Below the pieces are notes generated by a model. That model searched no databases and had not been told where the DNA came from. It was given only the letters and a program-made list of their open reading frames with translations. Below are positions 1,392 through 12,051 of a DNA stretch of 34,673 bases, piece by piece. Position 1 is the first letter of the stretch; every line of letters begins with the position of its first letter. The stretch lies in the IMG/VR virus record IMGVR_UViG_2563366915_000001; one strand, 5' to 3'. Origin of the DNA: a virus. Lineage: Duplodnaviria; Heunggongvirae; Uroviricota; Caudoviricetes. Both the position numbers and the translations under genes were made by a program.

Positions 1392-1641
1392 GGTTACCTC
1401 TGCTTTTTGAACGCATGTCACGTAACTTCTTAATGTGTTCTGCCGTTTCGATCTCTTCTGCTATCCGATCTGCATCAGCTTTATTCACAGGTTCAAAGTC
1501 ATGATTAAAGCGGAACATGCTGGCGATACATGTTCTGCCTTTTCGGATGTAGTGAACTTTGTTGTGGGTAGAACGCAGGATTTTGCAGGGAGTGCCGTGG
1601 TGGTCGACGTACCAGGTGTTAGGAAAAATGATTCTGAACAT
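1363..1641 (-). CDS. Hypothetical phage protein (92 aa)
   Basis: ORF in the leftward early operon between xis and the TraR-like gene; no recognisable motif. Confidence 0.35.
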   Translation of the reverse strand: MFRIIFPNTWYVDHHGTPCKILRSTHNKVHYIRKGRTCIASMFRFNHDFEPVNKADADRIAEEIETAEHIKKLRDMRSKSRGNHGIIQPHTR

Positions 1642-1688
1642 TTTTACACCTCAGTTGGACGATGTTGAAATTTGCTGCTTTGAGGCCA

Positions 1689-1907
1689 TCATAGTCCCCA
1701 TTGTTTGTTCTTAAGTTCGATCTCCTCCTGGCAACTTGCACAAGTCCGACAACCCTGAACAGCCAGGCGTCTTCGCTCATCTATCGGATCGCCACACTCA
1801 CAACAATGAGTTGCGGATACAGTCTGGTAGTTCAGACGACGCATTTTTATTGCTGTATTGCGCTGTAATTCTTCGATTTCTGATGCTGAATCAATGATGT
1901 CTGCCAT
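1689..1907 (-). CDS. TraR/DksA-family C4 zinc-finger protein (72 aa)
   Basis: Two CxxC pairs (CCECGDPIDE...CRTCASC) in a ~70-aa protein, the pattern of TraR-like RNA-polymerase-binding proteins encoded by lambdoid phages (lambda Orf73-like). Confidence 0.7.
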   Translation of the reverse strand: MADIIDSASEIEELQRNTAIKMRRLNYQTVSATHCCECGDPIDERRRLAVQGCRTCASCQEEIELKNKQWGL

Positions 1908-1999
1908 CTTCCATTAATCCCTGAATTGTTGGTTAATACGCTTGAGGATGAATGCGAACAATAAAAAAGGAGCCTGTAGCTCCCTGATGATTTTGCTTT

Positions 2000-2221
2000 T
2001 CATGTTAACCGTTCCTTAAAGACGCCGTTTAACATGCCGATCGCCAGGCTTAAATGAGTCGGTGTGAATCCCATCAGCGTTACCGTTTCACGGTGCTTCT
2101 TCAGTACGCTACGGCAAATGTCATCGACGTTTTTATCCGGAAACTGCTGTCTGGCTTTTTTGATTTCAGAATTAGCCTGACGGGCAATGCTGCGAAGGGC
2201 GTTTTCCTGCTGAGGTGTCAT
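2000..2221 (-). CDS. Hypothetical small protein of the lambda b-region type; start taken at MTPQQ, an upstream start at 2317 is possible
   Basis: ORF-track frame 2000..2317; position corresponds to the lambda orf61/ea cluster. Confidence 0.3.
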   Translation of the reverse strand: MTPQQENALRSIARQANSEIKKARQQFPDKNVDDICRSVLKKHRETVTLMGFTPTHLSLAIGMLNGVFKERLT

Positions 2222-2297
2222 TGAACAAGTCCCATGTCGGCAAGCATAAGCACACAGAATATGAAGCCCGCTGCCAGAAAAATGCATTCCGTGGCTG

Positions 2298-2489
2298 TCA
2301 TACCGGGTCTCTCTCATCTGCTTCTGCTTTCGCCACCATCATTTCCAGCTTTTGTGAAAGGGATGCGGCTAACGTATGAAATTCTTCGTCTGTTTCTACT
2401 GGTATTGGCACAAACCTGACTCCAATTTGAGCAAGGCTATGTGCCATCTCAATACTCGTTCTTAACTCAACAGGAGATGCTTTGTGCAT
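2298..2489 (-). CDS. Hypothetical small protein (63 aa), lambda orf63-like by position and size
   Basis: ORF track; lies between the orf60a-like ORF and the upstream small genes. Confidence 0.35.
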   Translation of the reverse strand: MHKASPVELRTSIEMAHSLAQIGVRFVPIPVETDEEFHTLAASLSQKLEMMVAKAEADERDPV

Positions 2490-2650
2490 ACCGCCTCCCG
2501 TTTATTATTTATCTTCTCAGCCAGCCGCTGTGCTTTCAGGGGATTTCTGATAACAGAAAGGCCGGGAAATACCCAGCCTCGCTTTGTAATGGAGTAGACG
2601 AAAGTGATCGCGCCTACCCGGATATTATCGTGAGGATGCGTCATCGCCAT
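2462..2650 (-). CDS. Hypothetical protein, lambda orf60a-like (62 aa)
   Basis: Translation [19 protein letters not shown]... matches my recollection of lambda orf60a; sits immediately downstream of exo with a short overlap. Confidence 0.45.
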
Positions 2651-3321
2651 TGCTCCCCAAATACAAAACCAATTTCAGCCAGTGCCTCGTCCATTTTTTC
2701 GATGAACTCCGGCACCATCTCGTCAAAACTCGCCATGTAATTTTCATCCCGCTCAACCACGACATAATGCAGGCCTTCACGCTTCATTCGTGGGTCATAG
2801 TTGGCAAAGTACCAGGCATCTTTTCGCGTCACCCACATGCTGTACTGCACCTGGGCCATGTAAGCCGACTTTATGGCCTCGAAACCACCGAGCCGGAATT
2901 TCATGAAATCCCGGGAGGTAAACGGGCATTTCAGTTCAAGGCCGTTGCCGTCACTGCATAAACCATCGGGAGAGCAGGCGGTGCGCATACTTTCGTCGCG
3001 ATAGATGATCGGGGATTCAGTAACATTCACGCCGGAAGTAAACTCAAACAGGGCTCTGGCGTCGTTCTCGTACTGTTTTCCCCAGGCCAGCGCCTTAGCA
3101 TTAACTTCCGGAGCCACACCGGTGCAAACCTCAGCCAGCAGGGTGTGGAAGTAGGACATTTTCATGTCAGGCCACTTCTTTCCTGAGCGGGGCTTTGCTA
3201 TCACGTTGTGAACTTCTGAAGCGGTGATGACGCCGAGCCGTAATTTGTGCCATGCATCATCCCCCTGTTCGACAGCTCTCACGTCGATCCCGGTACGCTG
3301 CAGGATAATGTCCGGTGTCAT
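2641..3321 (-). CDS. exo: Lambda exonuclease (Red-alpha), 226 aa
   Basis: Translation [40 protein letters not shown]... is near-identical to lambda Exo as I recall it; 4-bp overlap with bet. Confidence 0.95.
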
Positions 3322-4108: not shown

Positions 4109-4405
4109 TTATACCTCTGAATCAATATCAACCTGGTGGTGAGCAATGGTTTCAACCATGTACCGGATGTGTTCTGCCATGCGCTCCTGAAACTCAACAT
4201 CGTCATCAAACGCACGGGTAATGGCTTTTTTGCTGGCCCCGTGGCGTTGCAAATGATCGATGCATAGCGATTCAAACAGGTGCTGGGGCAGGCCTTTTTC
4301 CATGTCGTCTGCCAGTTCTGCCTCTTTCTCTTCACGGGCGATCTGCTGGTAGTGACGCGCCCAGCTCTGAGCCTCAAGACGATCCTGAATGTAATAAGCG
4401 TTCAT
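4109..4405 (-). CDS. gam: Gam, host RecBCD inhibitor; only the short (GamS-length, 98 aa) form is encoded
   Basis: Translation [60 protein letters not shown]... matches lambda Gam from its internal Met. The in-frame upstream sequence has no start codon and reaches a stop at 4490-4492. Confidence 0.9.
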
Positions 4406-4480
4406 GGCTGAACTCCTGAAAATGGCTGTGAAAAAATCGCCCGCGGAATGCCAGGCTGATTCGGAAAACAGGAAAGGGGA

Positions 4481-4771
4481 TTAGTGATTCAGACCGTTGC
4501 CGCGTCCGTCGAGAAAAACTTCCACGAGCAAGTCACGGGTATAAGTGCGCTCAATGCCGCGATGCAGATAAAGTCGTCCGCGTAAATTAGCTGATGCAGT
4601 CCAGGTACCATCTTTGCGTTTGACCAGCATTCCTGGCATGACCGCACCGCGATTAACGGTCTGCGTTCCGTAATGTTGATGAACCATAAAAACTCCTGCC
4701 CGTAAGCTGGGCTGCTGAACATATAAAGACTTCTGCGCGTATTCAGGCGGTGGATGGCCGCCGGTTGTCAT
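4481..4771 (-). CDS. First ORF of the PL operon; kil-like by position, possibly N-terminally extended (96 aa)
   Basis: Ends where lambda kil ends relative to gam; no arginine-rich motif, so not N-like; no cIII-like sequence. Identity to lambda Kil is not verified. Confidence 0.4.
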   Translation of the reverse strand: MTTGGHPPPEYAQKSLYVQQPSLRAGVFMVHQHYGTQTVNRGAVMPGMLVKRKDGTWTASANLRGRLYLHRGIERTYTRDLLVEVFLDGRGNGLNH

Positions 4772-4964
4772 AACTAAGCCGCCTCGTTGAAGCGACTAAG
4801 GTATGAAATGTTGAGTTGATTTCAGCTGGTCACACCGACGTTCACGCGTCCGTTTCATCCCTCGCACTCCCCGAAGCCTGCTGAAATTCAAGCTGCGGAT
4901 CTAAGCGGTCATCGCAACGGTGAATCAGGTAGTTGCCGTATCGTTGTGTTGTTGCGATGAACTT

Positions 4965-5040
4965 ATTTAAAACTATAGTTGTTTTATCGTCAACAACAAA
5001 AGTTGTTTTATTGGTTGTTTTAGATATAACTGGTTGTATT
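4965..5040 (-). promoter_or_regulatory. Candidate PL promoter with OL-type operator repeats
   Basis: On the minus strand: TTGACG (plus 4988-4993), 17-nt spacer, TTAAAT (plus 4965-4970). Architecture ttgttgacNNaaaacaacNatagtttTAA parallels the PR candidate. GGTTGTT/AACAACC-type half sites recur (ttggttgtttt, actggttgtat, caacaacaaaag). Confidence 0.45.
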
Positions 5041-5130
5041 TAGGATGGATTTATTTTGTGACTTGAATCGCATAGCGATAACTGAAGCGAGGTTATGGTG
5101 GTTTTTTTAACGGTGTGTGTGATGAGGGGA

Positions 5131-5161
5131 GGGCAAAAGAAAACCCGGCACGGTGGCCGGG
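5131..5161 (-). terminator. Rho-independent terminator closing the cI-proximal two-gene cassette
   Basis: Stem cccggc/gccggg (5144-5149 / 5156-5161) with 6-nt loop; on the minus strand it is followed by ttttcttttgccc; sits 9 bp past the stop of the 310-aa ORF. Confidence 0.6.
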
Positions 5162-5169
5162 TAGCATCA

Positions 5170-6102
5170 CTATTCGATTTTTTTAACCATGTAGTTACGT
5201 CGTGATGTTCCTAATCTTTCATTGTGAATCTCAGAAACGCTTACTACGAGCGATATTCGTTCACCAACTTTATATTTACTTTGAATTTCTCCTAACATAT
5301 CAATCGGATAAGAAGCCTTTATTTTTCCAAGCTCGCTTGCAATCTCCAATTTCCCGTACATGGATAAAATAGCAAGTTCGCCTGATATATGCTCATCCGG
5401 TAGCTGAATGACCTTCGTTAAAGCTAAGCGAGCATTCAGTTTTTTTATATCTTCTGAAGAAATTGACACTTGTCTGGTACCATCACTTAAAGGTCCAATC
5501 CAAGTAAGATCAAAGTTAAGACTATATTTTTCGCACTCATTTATGATGTTTTTTAGGTTAGCTGTTGATTGCGAACCAATTTCGGCAATTTTAGCCGTGA
5601 ATGTTTCTTCATCAATGGATGAGAGTAGTGCAAAAATCTCCTTAACAGCATGACTGGATACTGTTTCGATGAGCTCGCAAGAACCAGTAGAAAAAGTAAC
5701 ACCTAACTTCGTCGAACCTGGACGCAAGTCTGCCAATCTCATGTCTAATGATTTTTTAACATCAATCGGCACACGACTAGAATCTTTCCCAGATCCAAGT
5801 CGGTAAACTGCTTTCTGTACAAGGGATGCGAGATTACCTGAAATTACAGATAGAATATCTAACGGAATAGACCCGAAATCGACCAAAACACCTTTTAATC
5901 TCAACTCCATGAAATCACGTAAAGGATGTTGGTTATCGATTGCACGTTGTCTCTCTCGGAGATCGCTCAGATGGGAGTCAAGTGATCTAAATATAATGTC
6001 ATCAGCAAATGATCTCCCCTTATTTTGAGCAAGCAGATCCACATCGCGTTGAATGAACGCAATTCGCTCCTTGAGGGAGTTGAATGTTTTTTCTTCGCTC
6101 AT
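5170..6102 (-). CDS. Uncharacterised 310-aa protein, second gene of the cassette in the rexAB slot
   Basis: Long ORF in AT-rich DNA; its ATG overlaps the stop of the upstream ORF (ATGA at 6099-6102); no motif I can recognise (no Walker A, no clear HEPN Rx4-6H, no TM segment). Confidence 0.7.
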   Translation of the reverse strand: MSEEKTFNSLKERIAFIQRDVDLLAQNKGRSFADDIIFRSLDSHLSDLRERQRAIDNQHPLRDFMELRLKGVLVDFGSIPLDILSVISGNLASLVQKAVYRLGSGKDSSRVPIDVKKSLDMRLADLRPGSTKLGVTFSTGSCELIETVSSHAVKEIFALLSSIDEETFTAKIAEIGSQSTANLKNIINECEKYSLNFDLTWIGPLSDGTRQVSISSEDIKKLNARLALTKVIQLPDEHISGELAILSMYGKLEIASELGKIKASYPIDMLGEIQSKYKVGERISLVVSVSEIHNERLGTSRRNYMVKKIE

Positions 6103-6572
6103 AACATTACCCTCACGAGGCCTTTAGGATTCTCCTTCCGATCAAAACCAAACCACCCTCTCCAGTAACTTCGCCTTTCACTATAATCGATTTCTGGATG
6201 ATTTTCAGGCAGCAAAAGAACGTCAATGCTGTAGTTTTCTTTAATAAAATCTCTATTTAACAATGAGCTGACCAATGGCATCAGCGTGTTTGGCAAAGAG
6301 TTTAGGGCCAAATAATCGACGACCACGAGTATATCTATGTCATCAGGTTCAGGTTTCTCTGTAGTGAATGAACCATCGATCCACACTTCAGAGAAACATA
6401 GACACTGCTGATTAACAAGTTTAAATTGCTCAATAAGCTGTATAAAATTACAGTATAGCATACTTCTTCTAACGGATTTTGGGAAGGTGTCGACACAAAG
6501 AGACTTGATGCCATCACTATCCATATCATGAAATCCTGCTGTAAGAAGAGGTGGGAAGCTAGGCTTTTCCAT
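6099..6572 (-). CDS. Putative minimal nucleotidyltransferase (pol-beta superfamily, MNT/SMODS-like), 157 aa
   Basis: Translation contains WIDGSFTTEKPEPDDIDILVVVD, i.e. hG[GS]-x9-DxD, the signature of pol-beta-fold NTases, with a further acidic stretch (DVLLLPEN) downstream; first gene after cI on the same strand. Confidence 0.65.
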   Translation of the reverse strand: MEKPSFPPLLTAGFHDMDSDGIKSLCVDTFPKSVRRSMLYCNFIQLIEQFKLVNQQCLCFSEVWIDGSFTTEKPEPDDIDILVVVDYLALNSLPNTLMPLVSSLLNRDFIKENYSIDVLLLPENHPEIDYSERRSYWRGWFGFDRKENPKGLVRVML

Positions 6573-6653
6573 CCTAAGTCCTTGTTTATGCCATATAGTG
6601 TTCTATTTAATATTCTTGAAAAGAGTGTGCCTTAAAAAGCTACAGGCTAATTA

Positions 6654-7343
6654 TTAACCATGCTTCCTGTACGTCTGCGGCATGCTCCCAATAACCTTAC
6701 CGAAGATGAACACCCGGTTCATCTCGTCTTTCTCGATCGGGTCCCACGGTGAGTAGCTTTTGTTATCAGAGATGACCAGCAGCTTATCCTTCATCATTTG
6801 CAGGCGCTTTACATGGGCTGTGTCGTCGTACAGAAACGCATAGATACCATCACCGTCGAAAGATTTAACTGTGATATCAACGAACAGCAGATCACCTGGT
6901 TCGATCGTTCCTGACATGCTGTCACCACGCACGTTAATGATGCGGATATTTTCCGCCTTCCTACCATCGAACATGTGACGAGCATCGTCAAACGAGTACT
7001 CAACCGAGCGTAGAACTTCTACAAACTCACGGTTGATGACTCCCGGCCCAGCACTGACTTCTATATCAAGAACGTCAATCTTGAAGTATTTGGAATGGCT
7101 GACAGTTGATTGTATTGGTTGCACTGTACTGTCTGACATATTTCCAACGCCAGAAGATAACCATTCTGCGCGCACACCCAAAGCGTTCGCGATCTCCACG
7201 ATTTTAGTTGTTTGATTAGCTTTCCCTGTTTCGATTTTCTGAATAGCAGCCTGGCTAACCCCGACCAAATCCCCAAGCGCCTTTTGTGTAAGGCCTCGCG
7301 CTAATCTGGCTTCTTTAAGTCTTTCTGAGAGTGTTGTTTTCAT
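6654..7343 (-). CDS. cI: CI-type prophage repressor, N-terminal HTH plus C-terminal S24/LexA-like peptidase; start taken at MKTTLSERL
   Basis: HTH region LTQKALGDLVGVSQAAIQKIETG; C-terminal autocleavage-domain pattern (RGDSMSGTIEPGDLLFVD...VKR); divergent from cro across an operator region. Confidence 0.9.
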   Translation of the reverse strand: MKTTLSERLKEARLARGLTQKALGDLVGVSQAAIQKIETGKANQTTKIVEIANALGVRAEWLSSGVGNMSDSTVQPIQSTVSHSKYFKIDVLDIEVSAGPGVINREFVEVLRSVEYSFDDARHMFDGRKAENIRIINVRGDSMSGTIEPGDLLFVDITVKSFDGDGIYAFLYDDTAHVKRLQMMKDKLLVISDNKSYSPWDPIEKDEMNRVFIFGKVIGSMPQTYRKHG

Positions 7344-7447
7344 AGTCCAAATGTACAACCAAGGTTTTATTCCATCAAACGAAAATGGTTGTTGACTAAA
7401 AACAACCATAGTTTTAATCTTGATTCAAATTAACCACGGAGGTTGTT
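7344..7447. promoter_or_regulatory. OR/PR/PRM region between cI and cro
   Basis: PR candidate TTGACT (7392-7397), 17-nt spacer, TAATCT (7415-7420); inverted repeat atggttgtt-N7-aacaaccat embraces the -35; same half sites as the PL region. Confidence 0.55.
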
Positions 7448-7678
7448 ATGAACCCAGCTATCAAAACAGCGATCAATATCGTTGGTTCACAAAAGAAACT
7501 GGGCGCTGCTTGCGAAGTTTCACAGCAGGCCGTCTATAAGTGGCTTCACAACAAAGCAAAGGTATCCCCTGAACATGTCGGCAGCATTGTTACGGCTACT
7601 GGTGGAGTAGTGAAGGCATACCAGATTCGCCCGGATCTTCCGAAGTTGTTTCCACACACCGAAAAGAACGCAGCTTAA
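7448..7678 (+). CDS. cro: Cro-like HTH regulator (76 aa)
   Basis: Small HTH protein (QKKLGAACEVSQQAVYKWL) transcribed divergently from cI immediately after PR. Confidence 0.75.
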   Translation: MNPAIKTAINIVGSQKKLGAACEVSQQAVYKWLHNKAKVSPEHVGSIVTATGGVVKAYQIRPDLPKLFPHTEKNAA

Positions 7679-7747
7679 ATTTCCATTTCACGCTCTTTAA
7701 CAATAAGCAATCAACTTAACAGTCAATTCAAACTAAAGGAGTCAATT

Positions 7748-8287
7748 ATGCAACCACTTCCATACCAACAGACTAGCGGATTTAGCCCGACTGCGGTGAT
7801 AAATCGTTCTCAAACAAAACAGGTGCCAGGCCACGAAAAAATCCGTGATGCCGTCCGCGCCTGGTCGGCTGTAGATAATCAGGATGTCGTTGCCACACTC
7901 ATTGTGAATGAGTATCGGGAGCAGGGCGGCGGCACCATCGATTTCCCTGATGATGTCAGCCGTGCACGCCAGAAGCTGTTCCGCTTCCTCGATAACAAAT
8001 TCGATTCTGAAAAATACCGAAATAACGTGCGTGAACTGACCCCGGCAATTCTGGCGGTACTACCGCTGGAATATCGCGGTTACCTGGTTGAGCAGGATAG
8101 CTTCATGGCTAGGTTGGCTGAAATGGAAAAGGAACTCAGTGAGGCAAAACAGGCTGTCATTCTCAACGCACCACGCCACCAGAAACTGAAGGAAATTAGT
8201 GAAGGTATTGTATCGATGTTTCGTGTGGACCCAGATCTGGCTGGTCCATTGATGGCGATGGTTACTACCATGCTGGGGGCGATATGA
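7748..8287 (+). CDS. YdaT-like protein occupying the cII position (179 aa)
   Basis: Motifs NEYREQGGG and LTPAILAVLPLEYR resemble what I recall of Rac YdaT; no lambda-cII-like sequence. Confidence 0.5.
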   Translation: MQPLPYQQTSGFSPTAVINRSQTKQVPGHEKIRDAVRAWSAVDNQDVVATLIVNEYREQGGGTIDFPDDVSRARQKLFRFLDNKFDSEKYRNNVRELTPAILAVLPLEYRGYLVEQDSFMARLAEMEKELSEAKQAVILNAPRHQKLKEISEGIVSMFRVDPDLAGPLMAMVTTMLGAI

Positions 8288-8373
8288 CAGGTTCAGAAAT
8301 GGCGAAAGCCGGTCTGCTGGAACAGAACCGACTTTCAGGTGCAAATCGTAACACACTCATTGCGGGAGGAATT

Positions 8374-9303
8374 ATGGCAAACACTGCTGAGATATTCAAT
8401 TTTCCAGTGCCGGATGCGGCACAAAAGGAGCCGCGCGTGGCAGATCTCGATGATGGTTATACGCGCATTGCAAATGAGTTGCTGGAAGCTGTGATGCTGG
8501 CCGGATTAACACAGCACCAGCTTCTGGTCTTCCTGGCTGTCATGCGCAAAACATATGGCTTTAATAAAAAACTGGATTGGGTGAGCAACGAGCAACTTTC
8601 CGAATTGACCGGGATATTGCCGCACAAGTGTTCTGCTGCAAAAAGCGTTCTGGTAAAGCGTGGGATTCTTATTCAGAGCGGGCGGAATATCGGCATTAAT
8701 AATGTGGTCAGTGAATGGTCAACATTACCCGAATCAGGTAAGAAAAATAAAGTTTACCTGAAAGAGGTAAATTTACCTGAATCAGGTAAGAAAAGTTTAC
8801 CCAAATCAGGTAAAGGCGTTTACCCGAATCAGGTAAACACAAAAGACAAACTAACAAAAGACAATATAAAACCTTTTTCGTCCGAGAATTCTGGCGAATC
8901 CTCTGACCAGCCAGAAAACGATCTTCCTGTGGTGAAACCGGATGCTGCAATTCAGAGCGGCAGCAAGTGGGGGACAGCAGAAGACCTGACCGCCGCAGAG
9001 TGGATGTTTGACATGGTGAAGACTATCGCACCATCAGCCAGAAAACCGAATTTTGCTGGGTGGGCTAACGATATCCGCCTGATGCGTGAACGTGACGGAC
9101 GTAACCACCGCGACATGTGCGTGCTGTTCCGCTGGGCCTGCCAGGACAACTTCTGGTCCGGTAACGTGCTGAGTCCGGCCAAACTCCGCGACAAGTGGAC
9201 CCAGCTCGAAATCAACCGGAACAAGCAACAGGCTGGCGTGACAGTCGGCAAACCAAAACTCGACCTGACAAACACTGACTGGATTTACGGGGTGGATCTA
9301 TGA
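8374..9303 (+). CDS. O: Replication initiator O; start taken at MANTAEIFNF with GGGAGGA RBS
   Basis: N-terminal O-type domain (ADLDDGY...LLVFLAVMRKTYGFNKK), lambda-like C-terminus ending ...DWIYGVDL, iteron array inside the gene; 4-bp overlap with P. Confidence 0.9.
   Translation: MANTAEIFNFPVPDAAQKEPRVADLDDGYTRIANELLEAVMLAGLTQHQLLVFLAVMRKTYGFNKKLDWVSNEQLSELTGILPHKCSAAKSVLVKRGILIQSGRNIGINNVVSEWSTLPESGKKNKVYLKEVNLPESGKKSLPKSGKGVYPNQVNTKDKLTKDNIKPFSSENSGESSDQPENDLPVVKPDAAIQSGSKWGTAEDLTAAEWMFDMVKTIAPSARKPNFAGWANDIRLMRERDGRNHRDMCVLFRWACQDNFWSGNVLSPAKLRDKWTQLEINRNKQQAGVTVGKPKLDLTNTDWIYGVDL
8725..8880. repeat. Replication origin: five 17-19-bp iterons (consensus tttacccgaatcaggtaa) followed by an A-rich segment, inside O
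   Basis: Direct repeats at 8725-8741, 8753-8770, 8772-8789, 8796-8813 and 8819-8836, then acacaaaagacaaactaacaaaagacaatataaaacc; same layout as lambda ori. Confidence 0.8.
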
Positions 9304-10001
9304 AAAACATCGCCGCACAGATGGTTAACTTTGACCGTGAGCAGATGCGTCGGATCGCCAACAACATGCCGGAACAGTATGACGAAAAGCCACAGGTACA
9401 GCAGGTAGCGCAGATCATCAACGGTGTGTTCAGCCAGTTACTGGCAACTTTCCCGGCGAGCCTGGCTAATCGTGAGCAGAACGAACTGAACGAAATCCGC
9501 CGCCAGTGGGTTCTGGCTTTCCGGGAAAACGGGATCACCACGATGGAACAGGTTAACGCAGGAATGCGCGTAGCCCGTCGGCAGAATCGACCATTCCTGC
9601 CATCCCCCGGACAGTTTGTAGCCTGGTGCCGGGAAGAAGCATCCGTTATTGCCGGACTACCAAACACCAGCGAGCTGGTTGATATGGTTTACGAGTATTG
9701 CCGGAAGCGTGGCCTGTATCCGGATGCAGAGTCTTATCCGTGGAAATCAAACGCGCACTACTGGCTGGTTACCAACCTGTATCAGAACATGCGGGCCAAT
9801 GCGCTTACTGATGCGGAATTACGGCGCAAGGCTGCCGATGAACTGACTTGTATGACCGCGCGAATTAACCGTGGTGAGGCGATACCTGAACCAGTAAAAC
9901 AACTTCCTGTCATGGGCGGTAGACCTCTAAATCGTGCACAGGCTCTGGCGAAGATCGCAGAAATCAAAGCGAAGTTCGGACTGAAAGGAGCAACTGTATG
10001 A
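9300..10001 (+). CDS. P: Replication protein P (DnaB helicase loader), 233 aa
   Basis: Translation MKNIAAQMVNFDREQMRRIANNMPEQYDEKPQVQQVAQIINGVFSQLLATFPASLAN... is near-identical to lambda P. Confidence 0.95.
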   Translation: MKNIAAQMVNFDREQMRRIANNMPEQYDEKPQVQQVAQIINGVFSQLLATFPASLANREQNELNEIRRQWVLAFRENGITTMEQVNAGMRVARRQNRPFLPSPGQFVAWCREEASVIAGLPNTSELVDMVYEYCRKRGLYPDAESYPWKSNAHYWLVTNLYQNMRANALTDAELRRKAADELTCMTARINRGEAIPEPVKQLPVMGGRPLNRAQALAKIAEIKAKFGLKGATV

Positions 10002-10300
10002 CGGGCAAAGAGGCAATTATTCATTACCTGGGGACGCATAAGAGCTTCTGTGCGCAGGACGTTGCTGCGGTAACAGGCGCAACAGTAACCAGTATAAATC
10101 AGGCTGCGGCTAAAATGGCACGGGCAGGAATCTTGGTCGTTGATGGTAAGGTCTGGCGAACGGTGTATTACCGGTTCGCTACCAGGGAAGAACGGGAAGG
10201 AAAGGTGAGCACGAATCTGATTTTCAAGGAGTGTCGCCAGAGTGCCGCGATGAAACGAGTGTTGGCAGTGTATGGAGATATGAACTTAAACTTGCTGTGA
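9998..10300 (+). CDS. ren: Ren (Rex-exclusion negation protein), 100 aa
   Basis: Translation MTGKEAIIHYLGTHKSFCAQDVAAVTGATVTSINQAAAKMARAG... matches lambda Ren. Confidence 0.9.
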   Translation: MTGKEAIIHYLGTHKSFCAQDVAAVTGATVTSINQAAAKMARAGILVVDGKVWRTVYYRFATREEREGKVSTNLIFKECRQSAAMKRVLAVYGDMNLNLL

Positions 10301-10548
10301 CGGTTTTCATCGGTAACACACCATGTAATCTAGCAGTCAGCTTAGAAATAGGAGCGGCAGTTAAAGATTTTTCAGTTAGTAGAAAATTACTGTTATTGCA
10401 GGGATCTAATCACCGGAGAGTCGTTCCATTTGTCTTATGATTACCTGAAGTCCGTTAGTTCGTTGGTAATCACCGTTTTTGTTAGAGAAGTAAGCATCGC
10501 TGACAAAATATTCTCAACGATGCCTGCTTTATTGCTACTACAAATTAA

Positions 10549-12051
10549 TTAAATTGCATCTGCAAACTCTGGGGTTTTTCGCTCAGGTATAATTGATGAG
10601 TTGCTGTTGTCACTTTTTTTATTTTCATGATTACGAATAGCCAATGACTCATTAAAGTCTTTTGCGACTGCTGTCTCAATAAATTCAATTTCTGAATCAG
10701 AGTGTTTTTTAACAGCTTCTTTGATCTCATCCAGAGTAACATAGAAAAACTCTTTTCTACGATTTACAAGATTGACTCTCTTTTTATCGAAGACATCATG
10801 TAGTTTTTTTTCTAATGATGGAGCGTCCTCCGAATAAATCATGGCATGTACATCAAAAATAAAAGGAACAGATGCATCACCGAGCTCATTTACACGGTCT
10901 TGCGGATCAAGACGTCGTGTCATGCCTATTTTATAAACATTCTCCCCAAAAGAACCTATGTTCGAAATAATATAAACATGACCTTGTTTGGTTTGTTGTG
11001 CCATGGATAATGCTCTTTGATGCTTTGATTCAGCCTGCGACAAACTCTGTTCTAGTTCGGCAATGCGATTTTCGAGGCGCTGCTTCATGTCACCAGTAAC
11101 TTTTTCCATTTCCTTTCTTGCAGCTTCAATTGCTTTTTTATAACGGCGCTCTTCTGCCTCTGCGTCTTGCATGGCCTTTTCTATTTCTCGTTGTGCACGC
11201 TCCTCCTCTCTCATTTGTGCCCTTATTTCTGCCTGTTCTTCTTTTTCTTTCTGTTTTTGCTCACGATATTCATGGGTAAGCCACAATTCCTCAAGTTTTT
11301 TATTGAGGTATTTAGTGTTTATATATATGTGATTTTGCTCGTTTAGTTTATTTATGGCCTCAAATGCCTTTGTGATGCGTTCTTCCATTTTAGTGATGTT
11401 TTTCCACGTGCAATTGCTAATTGCAGCATCACATTCATTATTAAATGCTCTAGTAGTTAGCCTGATATTTCTGTCTGTCATTTTTTTACCCTCTGCTCGA
11501 GAGCCTTCAACAGTCCATTGGGTTGTACAATATACTGCGCCAGAGTGGGTTTTATCCCGCAGCATTAATTTCTGTTCATCCCTGATGGATTTTATTTTGT
11601 TTTTAAATTGCTCTGAATCTTCAAAATTAAAATGAGGTTCGTAAAATCCTAGTTCGGCTAGCTCAACATCTTCTGAATAAATAGAAATTTGCCTTACTAG
11701 TTTATCATATATTTCTTTCTTCTCTTTATAAGTTCTTCTTAGCTCTTGGATTTGTTTATTGATACCATCCATTTTTTCAATGGTGTTTGTTAGTTCATTA
11801 TTGGCATTTTCTTTTACTTTTAGGGATTCTTCTTTTATTATGGAGCATTCTTGCTCTGTTTTCTCAATAAGCTTCTTACATTCTTCTTCTACATTAAAAT
11901 AATCTGCAAAGCGAGATTTGTATTCTTCATTTTTTTGATTGCTATCACTTAATTCTAATTGTATTTTTTTGATGCGTTTGATTGCAGCTATATAAAGAAC
12001 AAGAACAACCAATAAAAATATGATTGCAAGTAATAGAGGAGTTTGAGTCAT
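10549..12051 (-). CDS. Membrane-anchored coiled-coil protein with DUF4041-like region and C-terminal T5orf172 (GIY-YIG-like) domain, 500 aa
   Basis: N-terminal hydrophobic helix (LLLAIIFLLVVLVLYIAAI); long E/K/R/Q-rich heptad region; C-terminal GHVYIISNIGSFGENVYKIGMTRRLDPQDRVNELGDASVPFIFDVHAMIYSEDAPSLEKKLHDVFDKKRVNL...KEFFYVTLDEIKEAV fits T5orf172; antisense to the early-right operon; AT-rich. Confidence 0.8.
   Translation of the reverse strand: MTQTPLLLAIIFLLVVLVLYIAAIKRIKKIQLELSDSNQKNEEYKSRFADYFNVEEECKKLIEKTEQECSIIKEESLKVKENANNELTNTIEKMDGINKQIQELRRTYKEKKEIYDKLVRQISIYSEDVELAELGFYEPHFNFEDSEQFKNKIKSIRDEQKLMLRDKTHSGAVYCTTQWTVEGSRAEGKKMTDRNIRLTTRAFNNECDAAISNCTWKNITKMEERITKAFEAINKLNEQNHIYINTKYLNKKLEELWLTHEYREQKQKEKEEQAEIRAQMREEERAQREIEKAMQDAEAEERRYKKAIEAARKEMEKVTGDMKQRLENRIAELEQSLSQAESKHQRALSMAQQTKQGHVYIISNIGSFGENVYKIGMTRRLDPQDRVNELGDASVPFIFDVHAMIYSEDAPSLEKKLHDVFDKKRVNLVNRRKEFFYVTLDEIKEAVKKHSDSEIEFIETAVAKDFNESLAIRNHENKKSDNSNSSIIPERKTPEFADAI

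Follow-up and report, generated by a model that had tools for sequence, protein, structure and literature searches.

A probable nucleotidyltransferase and its conserved partner in the cI-to-OL slot of an Escherichia prophage: a candidate lysogen-expressed exclusion module

The window analysed here is a stretch of viral DNA of 34,673 nt (IMGVR_UViG_2563366915_000001), and all coordinates given below refer to this whole stretch. Immediately downstream of its cI-type repressor gene, the window carries two open reading frames (ORFs) on the minus strand, which we term gene A (6099-6572, encoding 157 amino acids) and gene B (5170-6102, encoding 310 amino acids). They share 4 nt at 6099-6102, where the sequence ATGA combines the TGA stop codon of A with the ATG start codon of B. 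This arrangement is legible in the sequence and stands as described in an earlier note on the same DNA, which had proposed that the pair is an undescribed defence cassette expressed in lysogens. The region is 99.6% identical to that of Escherichia phage PhiR30_1 (PV340558.1), in which both A and B are annotated as hypothetical. The features of the locus are as follows.

4967..5021: OL/PL operator cluster, with three AAAACAAC-type repeats at 4978-5021 that are mirrors of the OR copies
5143..5162, minus strand: intrinsic terminator at the end of the cI-A-B unit, with a 7-bp stem (6 G-C) followed by TTTCTTTT, from a terminator scan
5170..6102, minus strand: gene B (PDC-M63B; phrog_6603), 310 amino acids, from the ORF and profile matches
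6099..6572, minus strand: gene A (DUF6932; PDC-M63A; phrog_9194), 157 amino acids, from the ORF and profile matches
6573..6653, minus strand: cI-A spacer of 81 bp, with an AAGGA ribosome-binding site
6654..7346, minus strand: cI-type repressor with HTH_3 and Peptidase_S24 domains, from Pfam
7374..7417: OR operator region (PRM/PR), with mirror copies of the OL repeats
7448-7678, plus strand: cro-like gene, rightward, after OR

The operator-like repeat AAAACAAC is present in seven copies in the window, compared to 1.6 expected, and these are grouped at 4967-5021 and 7333-7417 as mirror copies. A 19-nt arm at 4967-4985 has 95% complementarity to another at 7399-7417, and the inverted repeats I1, I2 and I5 pair the OL region with 7374-7417. 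Because OL and OR repeats flank the block, cI-A-B lies inside the immunity region at the position that rexA-rexB occupies in lambda, in agreement with the earlier note. A TTGACG sequence within the OL/PL cluster resembles a −35 hexamer for leftward transcription. The cassette is AT-rich, as had also been claimed, with a G+C fraction of 0.37-0.42 over approximately 5000-6600 compared to about 0.50-0.54 in the lambda-like red/gam (gam/bet) DNA on the left. The cI reading frame is open for 251 amino acids from an ATG at 7409, which sits within the OR palindrome. The start in RefSeq and in homologous repressors is the ATG at 7346 (MKT..., 230 amino acids), and this is probably the true start codon.

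The terminator had originally been placed at 5131-5161, and our scan located it close by, at 5162..5143 on the minus strand. Scanning of the 81-bp cI-A spacer revealed no terminator and no promoter above chance. A promoter that had been proposed there (TTCAAG-17-TATATG) agrees with the consensus at 7 of 12 positions, which is below the permissive threshold, and is not upheld: promoter-like matches in the region occur at the frequency expected by chance (7 found, 6.2 expected). Because neither a terminator nor a credible promoter intervenes and the genes are translationally coupled, cI, A and B are most likely co-transcribed from PRM in lysogens, with transcription ending at the terminator at 5143-5162. 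Two promoter-like matches (each 9/12) are present on the minus strand at 6180-6226, in the 3ˊ part of A ahead of B, again in a region where the count of such matches is at chance. Their placement recalls that of lambda PLIT before rexB. A scan of 4300-7800 against Rfam gave no family match. Between OL/PL and the kil-like gene (4686-4966), no N-like antiterminator is present in RefSeq or GenBank annotations of near-identical prophages, and Rfam likewise gave none.

The earlier note had suggested asking whether the two genes also occur together elsewhere, and they do so. A survey seeded with A took in 80 loci from species-representative genomes of many phyla, together with 80 viral contigs. In every locus with enough sequence, an ORF of the B family is located directly downstream of A on the same strand (79/79 genomic and 78/78 viral loci, or 157/157), and the 4-nt overlap between the genes is found in 102 of the A-seeded loci. 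Conversely, an intact A is present in all 53 loci that were recovered with B as the seed. Even distant homologues of A from Pseudoalteromonas, Bermanella, Psychroserpens and uncultured bacteria are immediately followed by a gene for a protein of about 305-312 amino acids, and the partners in Bermanella and Pseudoalteromonas are homologues of B with 25-30% identity (E = 7e-20 to 1e-44). Other phyla, Bacteroidota among them, also retain the pair. A search for a third conserved gene beside A-B in the surveyed loci found none. Together, A and B constitute an obligate module of two genes that is self-contained.

Several individual loci deserve mention. In E. coli OkiPb01716 (NZ_AP042701.1; locus 4991-6153), an IS3 element has landed precisely at the A-B junction, changing the last residues of A and uncoupling B. 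In Treponema sp., the gene after A codes for only 92 amino acids in place of a 310-amino-acid B, and may represent either a truncated B or another partner. The pair in Psychroserpens burtonensis (Bacteroidota; locus 1511-3112) is followed by genes for a Peptidase_U49 (Lit-like) protein and a DUF6933 protein, and these may together form a small defence cluster. Finally, three loci (L011-L013, approximately 8001-10653) consist of A-B and a single tyrosine integrase, forming a minimal island inserted beside smpB. This layout suggests a tiny integrative element with A-B as its only cargo.

Protein A had been read as carrying the GS-x9-DxD signature of the DNA polymerase beta (Pol-beta) superfamily of nucleotidyltransferases (NTases). 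This motif is present as WIDGSFTTEKPEPDDIDILVVVD, corresponding to G67-S68-x9-D78-x-D80. Among 40 homologues, the residues G67-S68-x9-D78-I-D80 are invariant and D117, the likely third carboxylate, is at least 90% conserved. The GS...DxD catalytic motif is unbroken in 160/160 homologous loci. Another feature of the same 40 homologues is a basic and aromatic C-terminal motif, RSYWRGWFGFDR...KG, which is invariant or nearly so. Against Pfam, A matches DUF6932 with E = 4e-26, and the Pol-beta NTase models match weakly, below threshold. An AlphaFold2 (AF2) model based on the 40-sequence alignment has a mean predicted local distance difference test (pLDDT) score of 96.2. By motif and model, A has the features expected of the Pol-beta superfamily, including hG[GS]-x9-13-Dh[DE]h, a third carboxylate and an alpha-beta NTase fold. 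The structures closest to A are MNT antitoxins and ANT adenylyltransferases, every one of which is distant, and a sequence search of all PDB chains with the 40-sequence profile gave nothing meaningful. A match of residues 134-150 (RSYWRGWFGFDR) to ribosome modulation factor (PDB 2jrm; E = 0.37) was judged to be due to chance. Together, the DUF6932 match, the intact motif and the confident model indicate that A is a genuine, and probably active, minimal NTase of an uncharacterised family. The PhiR30_1 GenBank record begins gene A at an internal ATG (141 amino acids), and the N-terminal FPPLLxxGFHD sequence that this start would omit is conserved throughout the family.

The second protein had been described as lacking any motif that could be placed, and B indeed matches no family in Pfam or NCBIfam. 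It has no relative among all PDB chains when searched by sequence or with a 125-sequence profile, and the 125 homologues themselves show no consistent match when scanned against Pfam. A full-library profile search with B recovered 278 clusters at 50% identity, nearly all with lengths of 300-325 amino acids, full-length matches and no fusions. The protein is predicted to be soluble, with a maximum 19-residue hydropathy of 1.54 (family median 1.06) and no transmembrane segment. The only invariant residue of B across the 125 diverse sequences is S130, located in a stretch of the model where the pLDDT falls below 50. Conservation reaches at least 90% at six other residues (G77, L81, G129, G176, W201 and G241) and is 84-93% at E63, R68 and R122. 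R68, G77, R122, G129 and S130 belong to a conserved Gly-Ser loop region. No conserved constellation that resembles a catalytic site is evident among these homologues, and B carries no recognisable catalytic or pore-forming domain. The earlier view of the cassette as possibly an NTase plus an effector stays conjectural. A is the only recognisable enzyme of the pair and B is apparently a non-catalytic partner.

The AF2 model of B, built on a 30-sequence alignment, is moderate (pLDDT 70.7), and use of the 125-sequence alignment might model residues 60-150 better. In this model, long N-terminal helices precede the poorly modelled region 60-150, after which come a helical segment and a C-terminal barrel modelled with confidence. 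This barrel, at approximately residues 229-310, is predicted to adopt an OB fold. When B was compared with predicted viral structures, a DUF6575 protein ranked first (E = 2e-9, 254 columns, low template modelling score) and single-stranded-DNA-binding proteins came next. DUF6575 is among the domains newly tied to defence by Vassallo et al. 2022, and we treat the resemblance as a lead only. A possible internal duplication of B, relating its middle region to the OB domain, was rejected because the hhalign probability is below 3%. HEPN matches in Pfam that appear for single B homologues are at chance level.

The genomic context of the pair in phages has a consistent theme. In most loci on phage contigs, A-B is located immediately downstream of a repressor gene, and at least two unrelated repressor types are represented, including a 229-amino-acid protein with helix-turn-helix (HTH) and S24 domains in 48 loci and a 131-amino-acid HTH protein in 13 loci. 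In phage mEpX1 and Erwinia phage vB_EhrS_59, the pair likewise resides downstream of cI, between cI and nutL/N. Of 5,426 complete E. coli genomes, 98 carry the cassette with an identity of at least 99%, in every case on the chromosome, and 1,520 have the same cI allele. The region between cI and OL that follows this allele has the following contents in different strains.

This window: DUF6932 protein and B (PDC-M63AB), in 98 genomes
N427: HipA-family kinase and DUF3037 protein (PDC-M66AB), in 284 genomes
Strain 272: a 353-amino-acid protein and an ASCH protein (PDC-M11AB), in 275 genomes
N5D43: two small ORFs
SI-NP020: empty

In this E. coli immunity type, which is very common, the cI-to-OL slot (5022-6653) is a hotspot for variable cargo, and A-B is optional cargo there in a lambdoid prophage. 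The HipA-family and DUF3037 proteins of N427 have exactly the accessions of DS-6/HipAD (WP_000389051.1 and WP_000210934.1), which was validated experimentally as a defence system in the DefensePredictor study. Hence, the slot demonstrably carries defence cargo. HipAD and A-B are alike in residing in the same slot after the same cI allele and in being two-gene, AT-rich, optional cargo. However, their proteins and chemistry are unrelated, with a kinase in the former and an NTase in the latter. BstA and DS-34 are other examples of repressor-adjacent cargo located downstream of cI. The presence of ren had also been offered as relevant to the cassette. This gene is indeed annotated in PhiR30_1, but it travels with the O-P replication module and is also found beside slots that are empty or that carry HipAD or PDC-M11, and is thus uninformative about A-B. 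A second strongly AT-rich island lies at approximately 10400-12000 of the window, where the G+C fraction falls to 0.29. The equivalent interval of PhiR30_1 (ren to ninB) is annotated with an acyltransferase and an outer-membrane lipoprotein, and is probably another moron or lysogenic-conversion cassette.

The claim that the cassette is undescribed proved to be incorrect. Protein A matches the PADLOC model PDC-M63A (PDLC04744) with E = 7.4e-43 over residues 1-156 of 157, and B matches six sub-models of PDC-M63B, the best with E = 4e-42 over residues 25-309. Judged by these profile matches, the locus is a member of the PADLOC candidate family PDC-M63AB (Payne et al. 2024), in which both proteins match near full length and are adjacent, overlapping and on the same strand; no structural difference is apparent. 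The PDC systems are 145 bioinformatic candidates that were nominated by their embedding within bacteriophage exclusion (BREX), defence island system associated with restriction-modification (DISARM) or type I restriction-modification loci, and PDC-M63 corresponds to cassette CAS_00189. In addition, B (WP_001288169.1) is listed in Table S5 of the DefensePredictor study as a 'Predicted novel defense gene', with a mean log-odds of 5.77 relative to a strict cutoff of 4. Neither A nor B is present in the DefensePredictor tables of cloned and tested units. The family is thus already present in Pfam, PHROGs, PADLOC and the DefensePredictor tables, and little credit for discovery can be claimed. Its partner B has no characterised relative, and a search of the literature on DUF6932, on PhiR30 and on two-gene defence systems with an NTase and an OB fold found no characterisation.

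The PDC-M63 assignment, the DefensePredictor score and a slot that elsewhere carries HipAD make a defence or exclusion role the best contextual reading of the cassette, as had been anticipated. We judge the chance that A-B protects lysogens against other phages to be slightly better than even. The best explanation for the pair, in which we place roughly even confidence, is a lysogen-expressed exclusion or abortive-infection module, preferably with a mechanism like that of the type VII toxin-antitoxin (TA) system HepT/MntA. We favour this logic because the gene order and the structural neighbours of A are like those of MntA, because B has no catalytic features, and because the invariant S130 resides in an apparently flexible loop. 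In both systems, the NTase gene comes first and overlaps that of its partner, and MNT proteins are among the structural neighbours of A.

According to this model, A and B would be expressed together with cI from PRM in the lysogen. There, A might nucleotidylylate B and thereby keep it inactive. The candidate site for such a modification is the invariant Ser130, which belongs to a conserved stretch with little order in the predicted structure. Infection would presumably upset this balance and free B, which might then use its OB-fold domain to act on a nucleic-acid or protein target.

Several observations weigh against this explanation. Most directly, deletion of PDC-M63AB from the clinical isolate E. 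coli NILS69, where it was picked for deletion because it is prophage-borne, left the infectivity of 10 virulent phages unchanged. The precision of contextual prediction is also moderate. Counting from the tables of the DefensePredictor study, 11 of the 26 tested units within 2 log-odds of 5.77 were protective, or about 42% at the score of B. Outside of enteric bacteria, the genes flanking the pair are a mixture of housekeeping genes, transposases, integrases and few defence candidates, and the defence-island signal is therefore weak. With regard to mechanism, B is not a HEPN protein, unlike HepT. It has no HEPN match in Pfam, its fold consists of helices and an OB barrel, and the conserved Rx4-6H motif is lacking: the apparent one, R39-x4-H44, is not maintained in the family (R39 in 16/125 and H44 in 74/125 sequences). 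Similarly, A falls below the threshold of every MNT and NTP_transf model in Pfam and has additional conserved elements at its N and C termini. Conservation of B is concentrated in the region that is modelled worst. The net charge of the OB domain across the B family has a median of 0 and a range of −8 to +9. Because this domain is not consistently basic, nucleic-acid binding by B is plausible but not assured. Finally, B is broken into fragments in about 10 loci with an intact A, and the reverse was not seen. This asymmetry might mean that A does no harm on its own, but so few loci carry no statistical weight.

Given the negative outcome of the deletion and the weakness of the defence-island signal, a function other than defence is a serious rival. 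On this account, which we consider unlikely overall, the pair might provide addiction or TA-like stabilisation, or a lysogen-conversion or regulatory function that serves the prophage or mobile element. The varied mobile settings in which the pair is found, including Tn3/mer, insertion sequence elements and the small integrase island next to smpB, are consistent with such a role, as is the observation that neighbouring genes show little tie to known defence genes. Moreover, approximately 58% of units with a DefensePredictor score similar to that of B failed validation. However, the same slot elsewhere houses the validated HipAD, and two independent context-based predictors flag the pair. The distinction between this account and an exclusion module is also not a sharp one, since many TA-like modules are abortive-infection systems. 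One specific version, addiction with A as the toxin and B as the antitoxin, is disfavoured because the fragmented B genes indicate that loss of B is tolerated. The reverse arrangement is untouched by this argument.

Two further alternatives would have the pair act in defence. The first is a two-subunit NTase in which the OB fold of B would recruit single-stranded DNA, tRNA or an RNA 3ˊ end for A to extend with added nucleotides, in the manner of MenT/AbiEii or terminal uridylyltransferases, thus blocking phage replication or translation. A shares with MenT/AbiEii, as it does with CBASS (cyclic-oligonucleotide-based anti-phage signalling system) NTases and with Hailong HalB/HalA, a Pol-beta core and the theme of an NTase that governs the immune outcome. 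We consider this arrangement improbable. The second is a guard system resembling Hailong, in which the NTase HalB makes oligo-dA, which represses HalA. By analogy, constitutive synthesis by A would yield a nucleotide or oligonucleotide bound by the OB fold of B, and phage nucleases or nucleotide depletion would remove this ligand and free B. The pairing of an NTase with a partner that has a classical oligonucleotide-binding fold would suit such a guard, as would the strict 1:1 pairing and translational coupling of the genes. Nevertheless, A-B does not belong to Hailong, which comprises a membrane ion-channel HalA and a DNA-synthesising NTase, and we also regard a guard of this type as having only a small chance of being correct.

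A divergent Rex-like system (RexA as sensor and RexB as membrane channel) or a CBASS-like system is extremely improbable, as both are ruled out by sequence, size, fold and the lack of membrane segments. The resemblance to lambda RexA/RexB is positional: two genes lie between cI and OL on the cI strand, are closed by a terminator, and are presumed to be expressed in the lysogen. There is no relationship in sequence or fold, no Rex match was found in Pfam, PHROG or NCBIfam, and A is an NTase. Lambda RexB is a multi-pass membrane protein, whereas B is soluble. These findings agree with the original view of the cassette as non-Rex. The accompanying view that A is not a CBASS cyclase also holds. 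With 157 amino acids, A is far smaller than the cGAS/DncV-like nucleotidyltransferases (CD-NTases) of CBASS, which have about 300 amino acids or more, and PADLOC gives no CBASS model and no effector domain that senses cyclic nucleotides. In summary, membership in Rex-like, CBASS, HEPN-MNT and Hailong systems is in each case precluded by a defining feature.

A broader proposal, which we consider possible but less likely than not, is that DUF6932 and its OB-fold partner represent a new and widespread class of NTase-based immunity. In this class, a non-enzymatic B would be controlled covalently by A or be given a ligand by it, through a mechanism distinct from those of CBASS, HEPN-MNT, MenT/AbiE and Hailong, and enteric prophages would deploy the pair from the repressor operon in the manner of RexAB. 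The analysis provides handles with which this putative lysogen-expressed module can be approached, namely the catalytic residues D78 and D80, the single candidate modification site S130, and a reason to favour temperate over virulent phages. If the exclusion reading is true, the cI-to-OL slot would be a hotspot in which defence cargo such as HipAD, PDC-M11 and PDC-M63 is swapped in. If the pair does protect lysogens, bacterial immunity would gain an NTase system that spans phyla and whose mechanism is uncharted.

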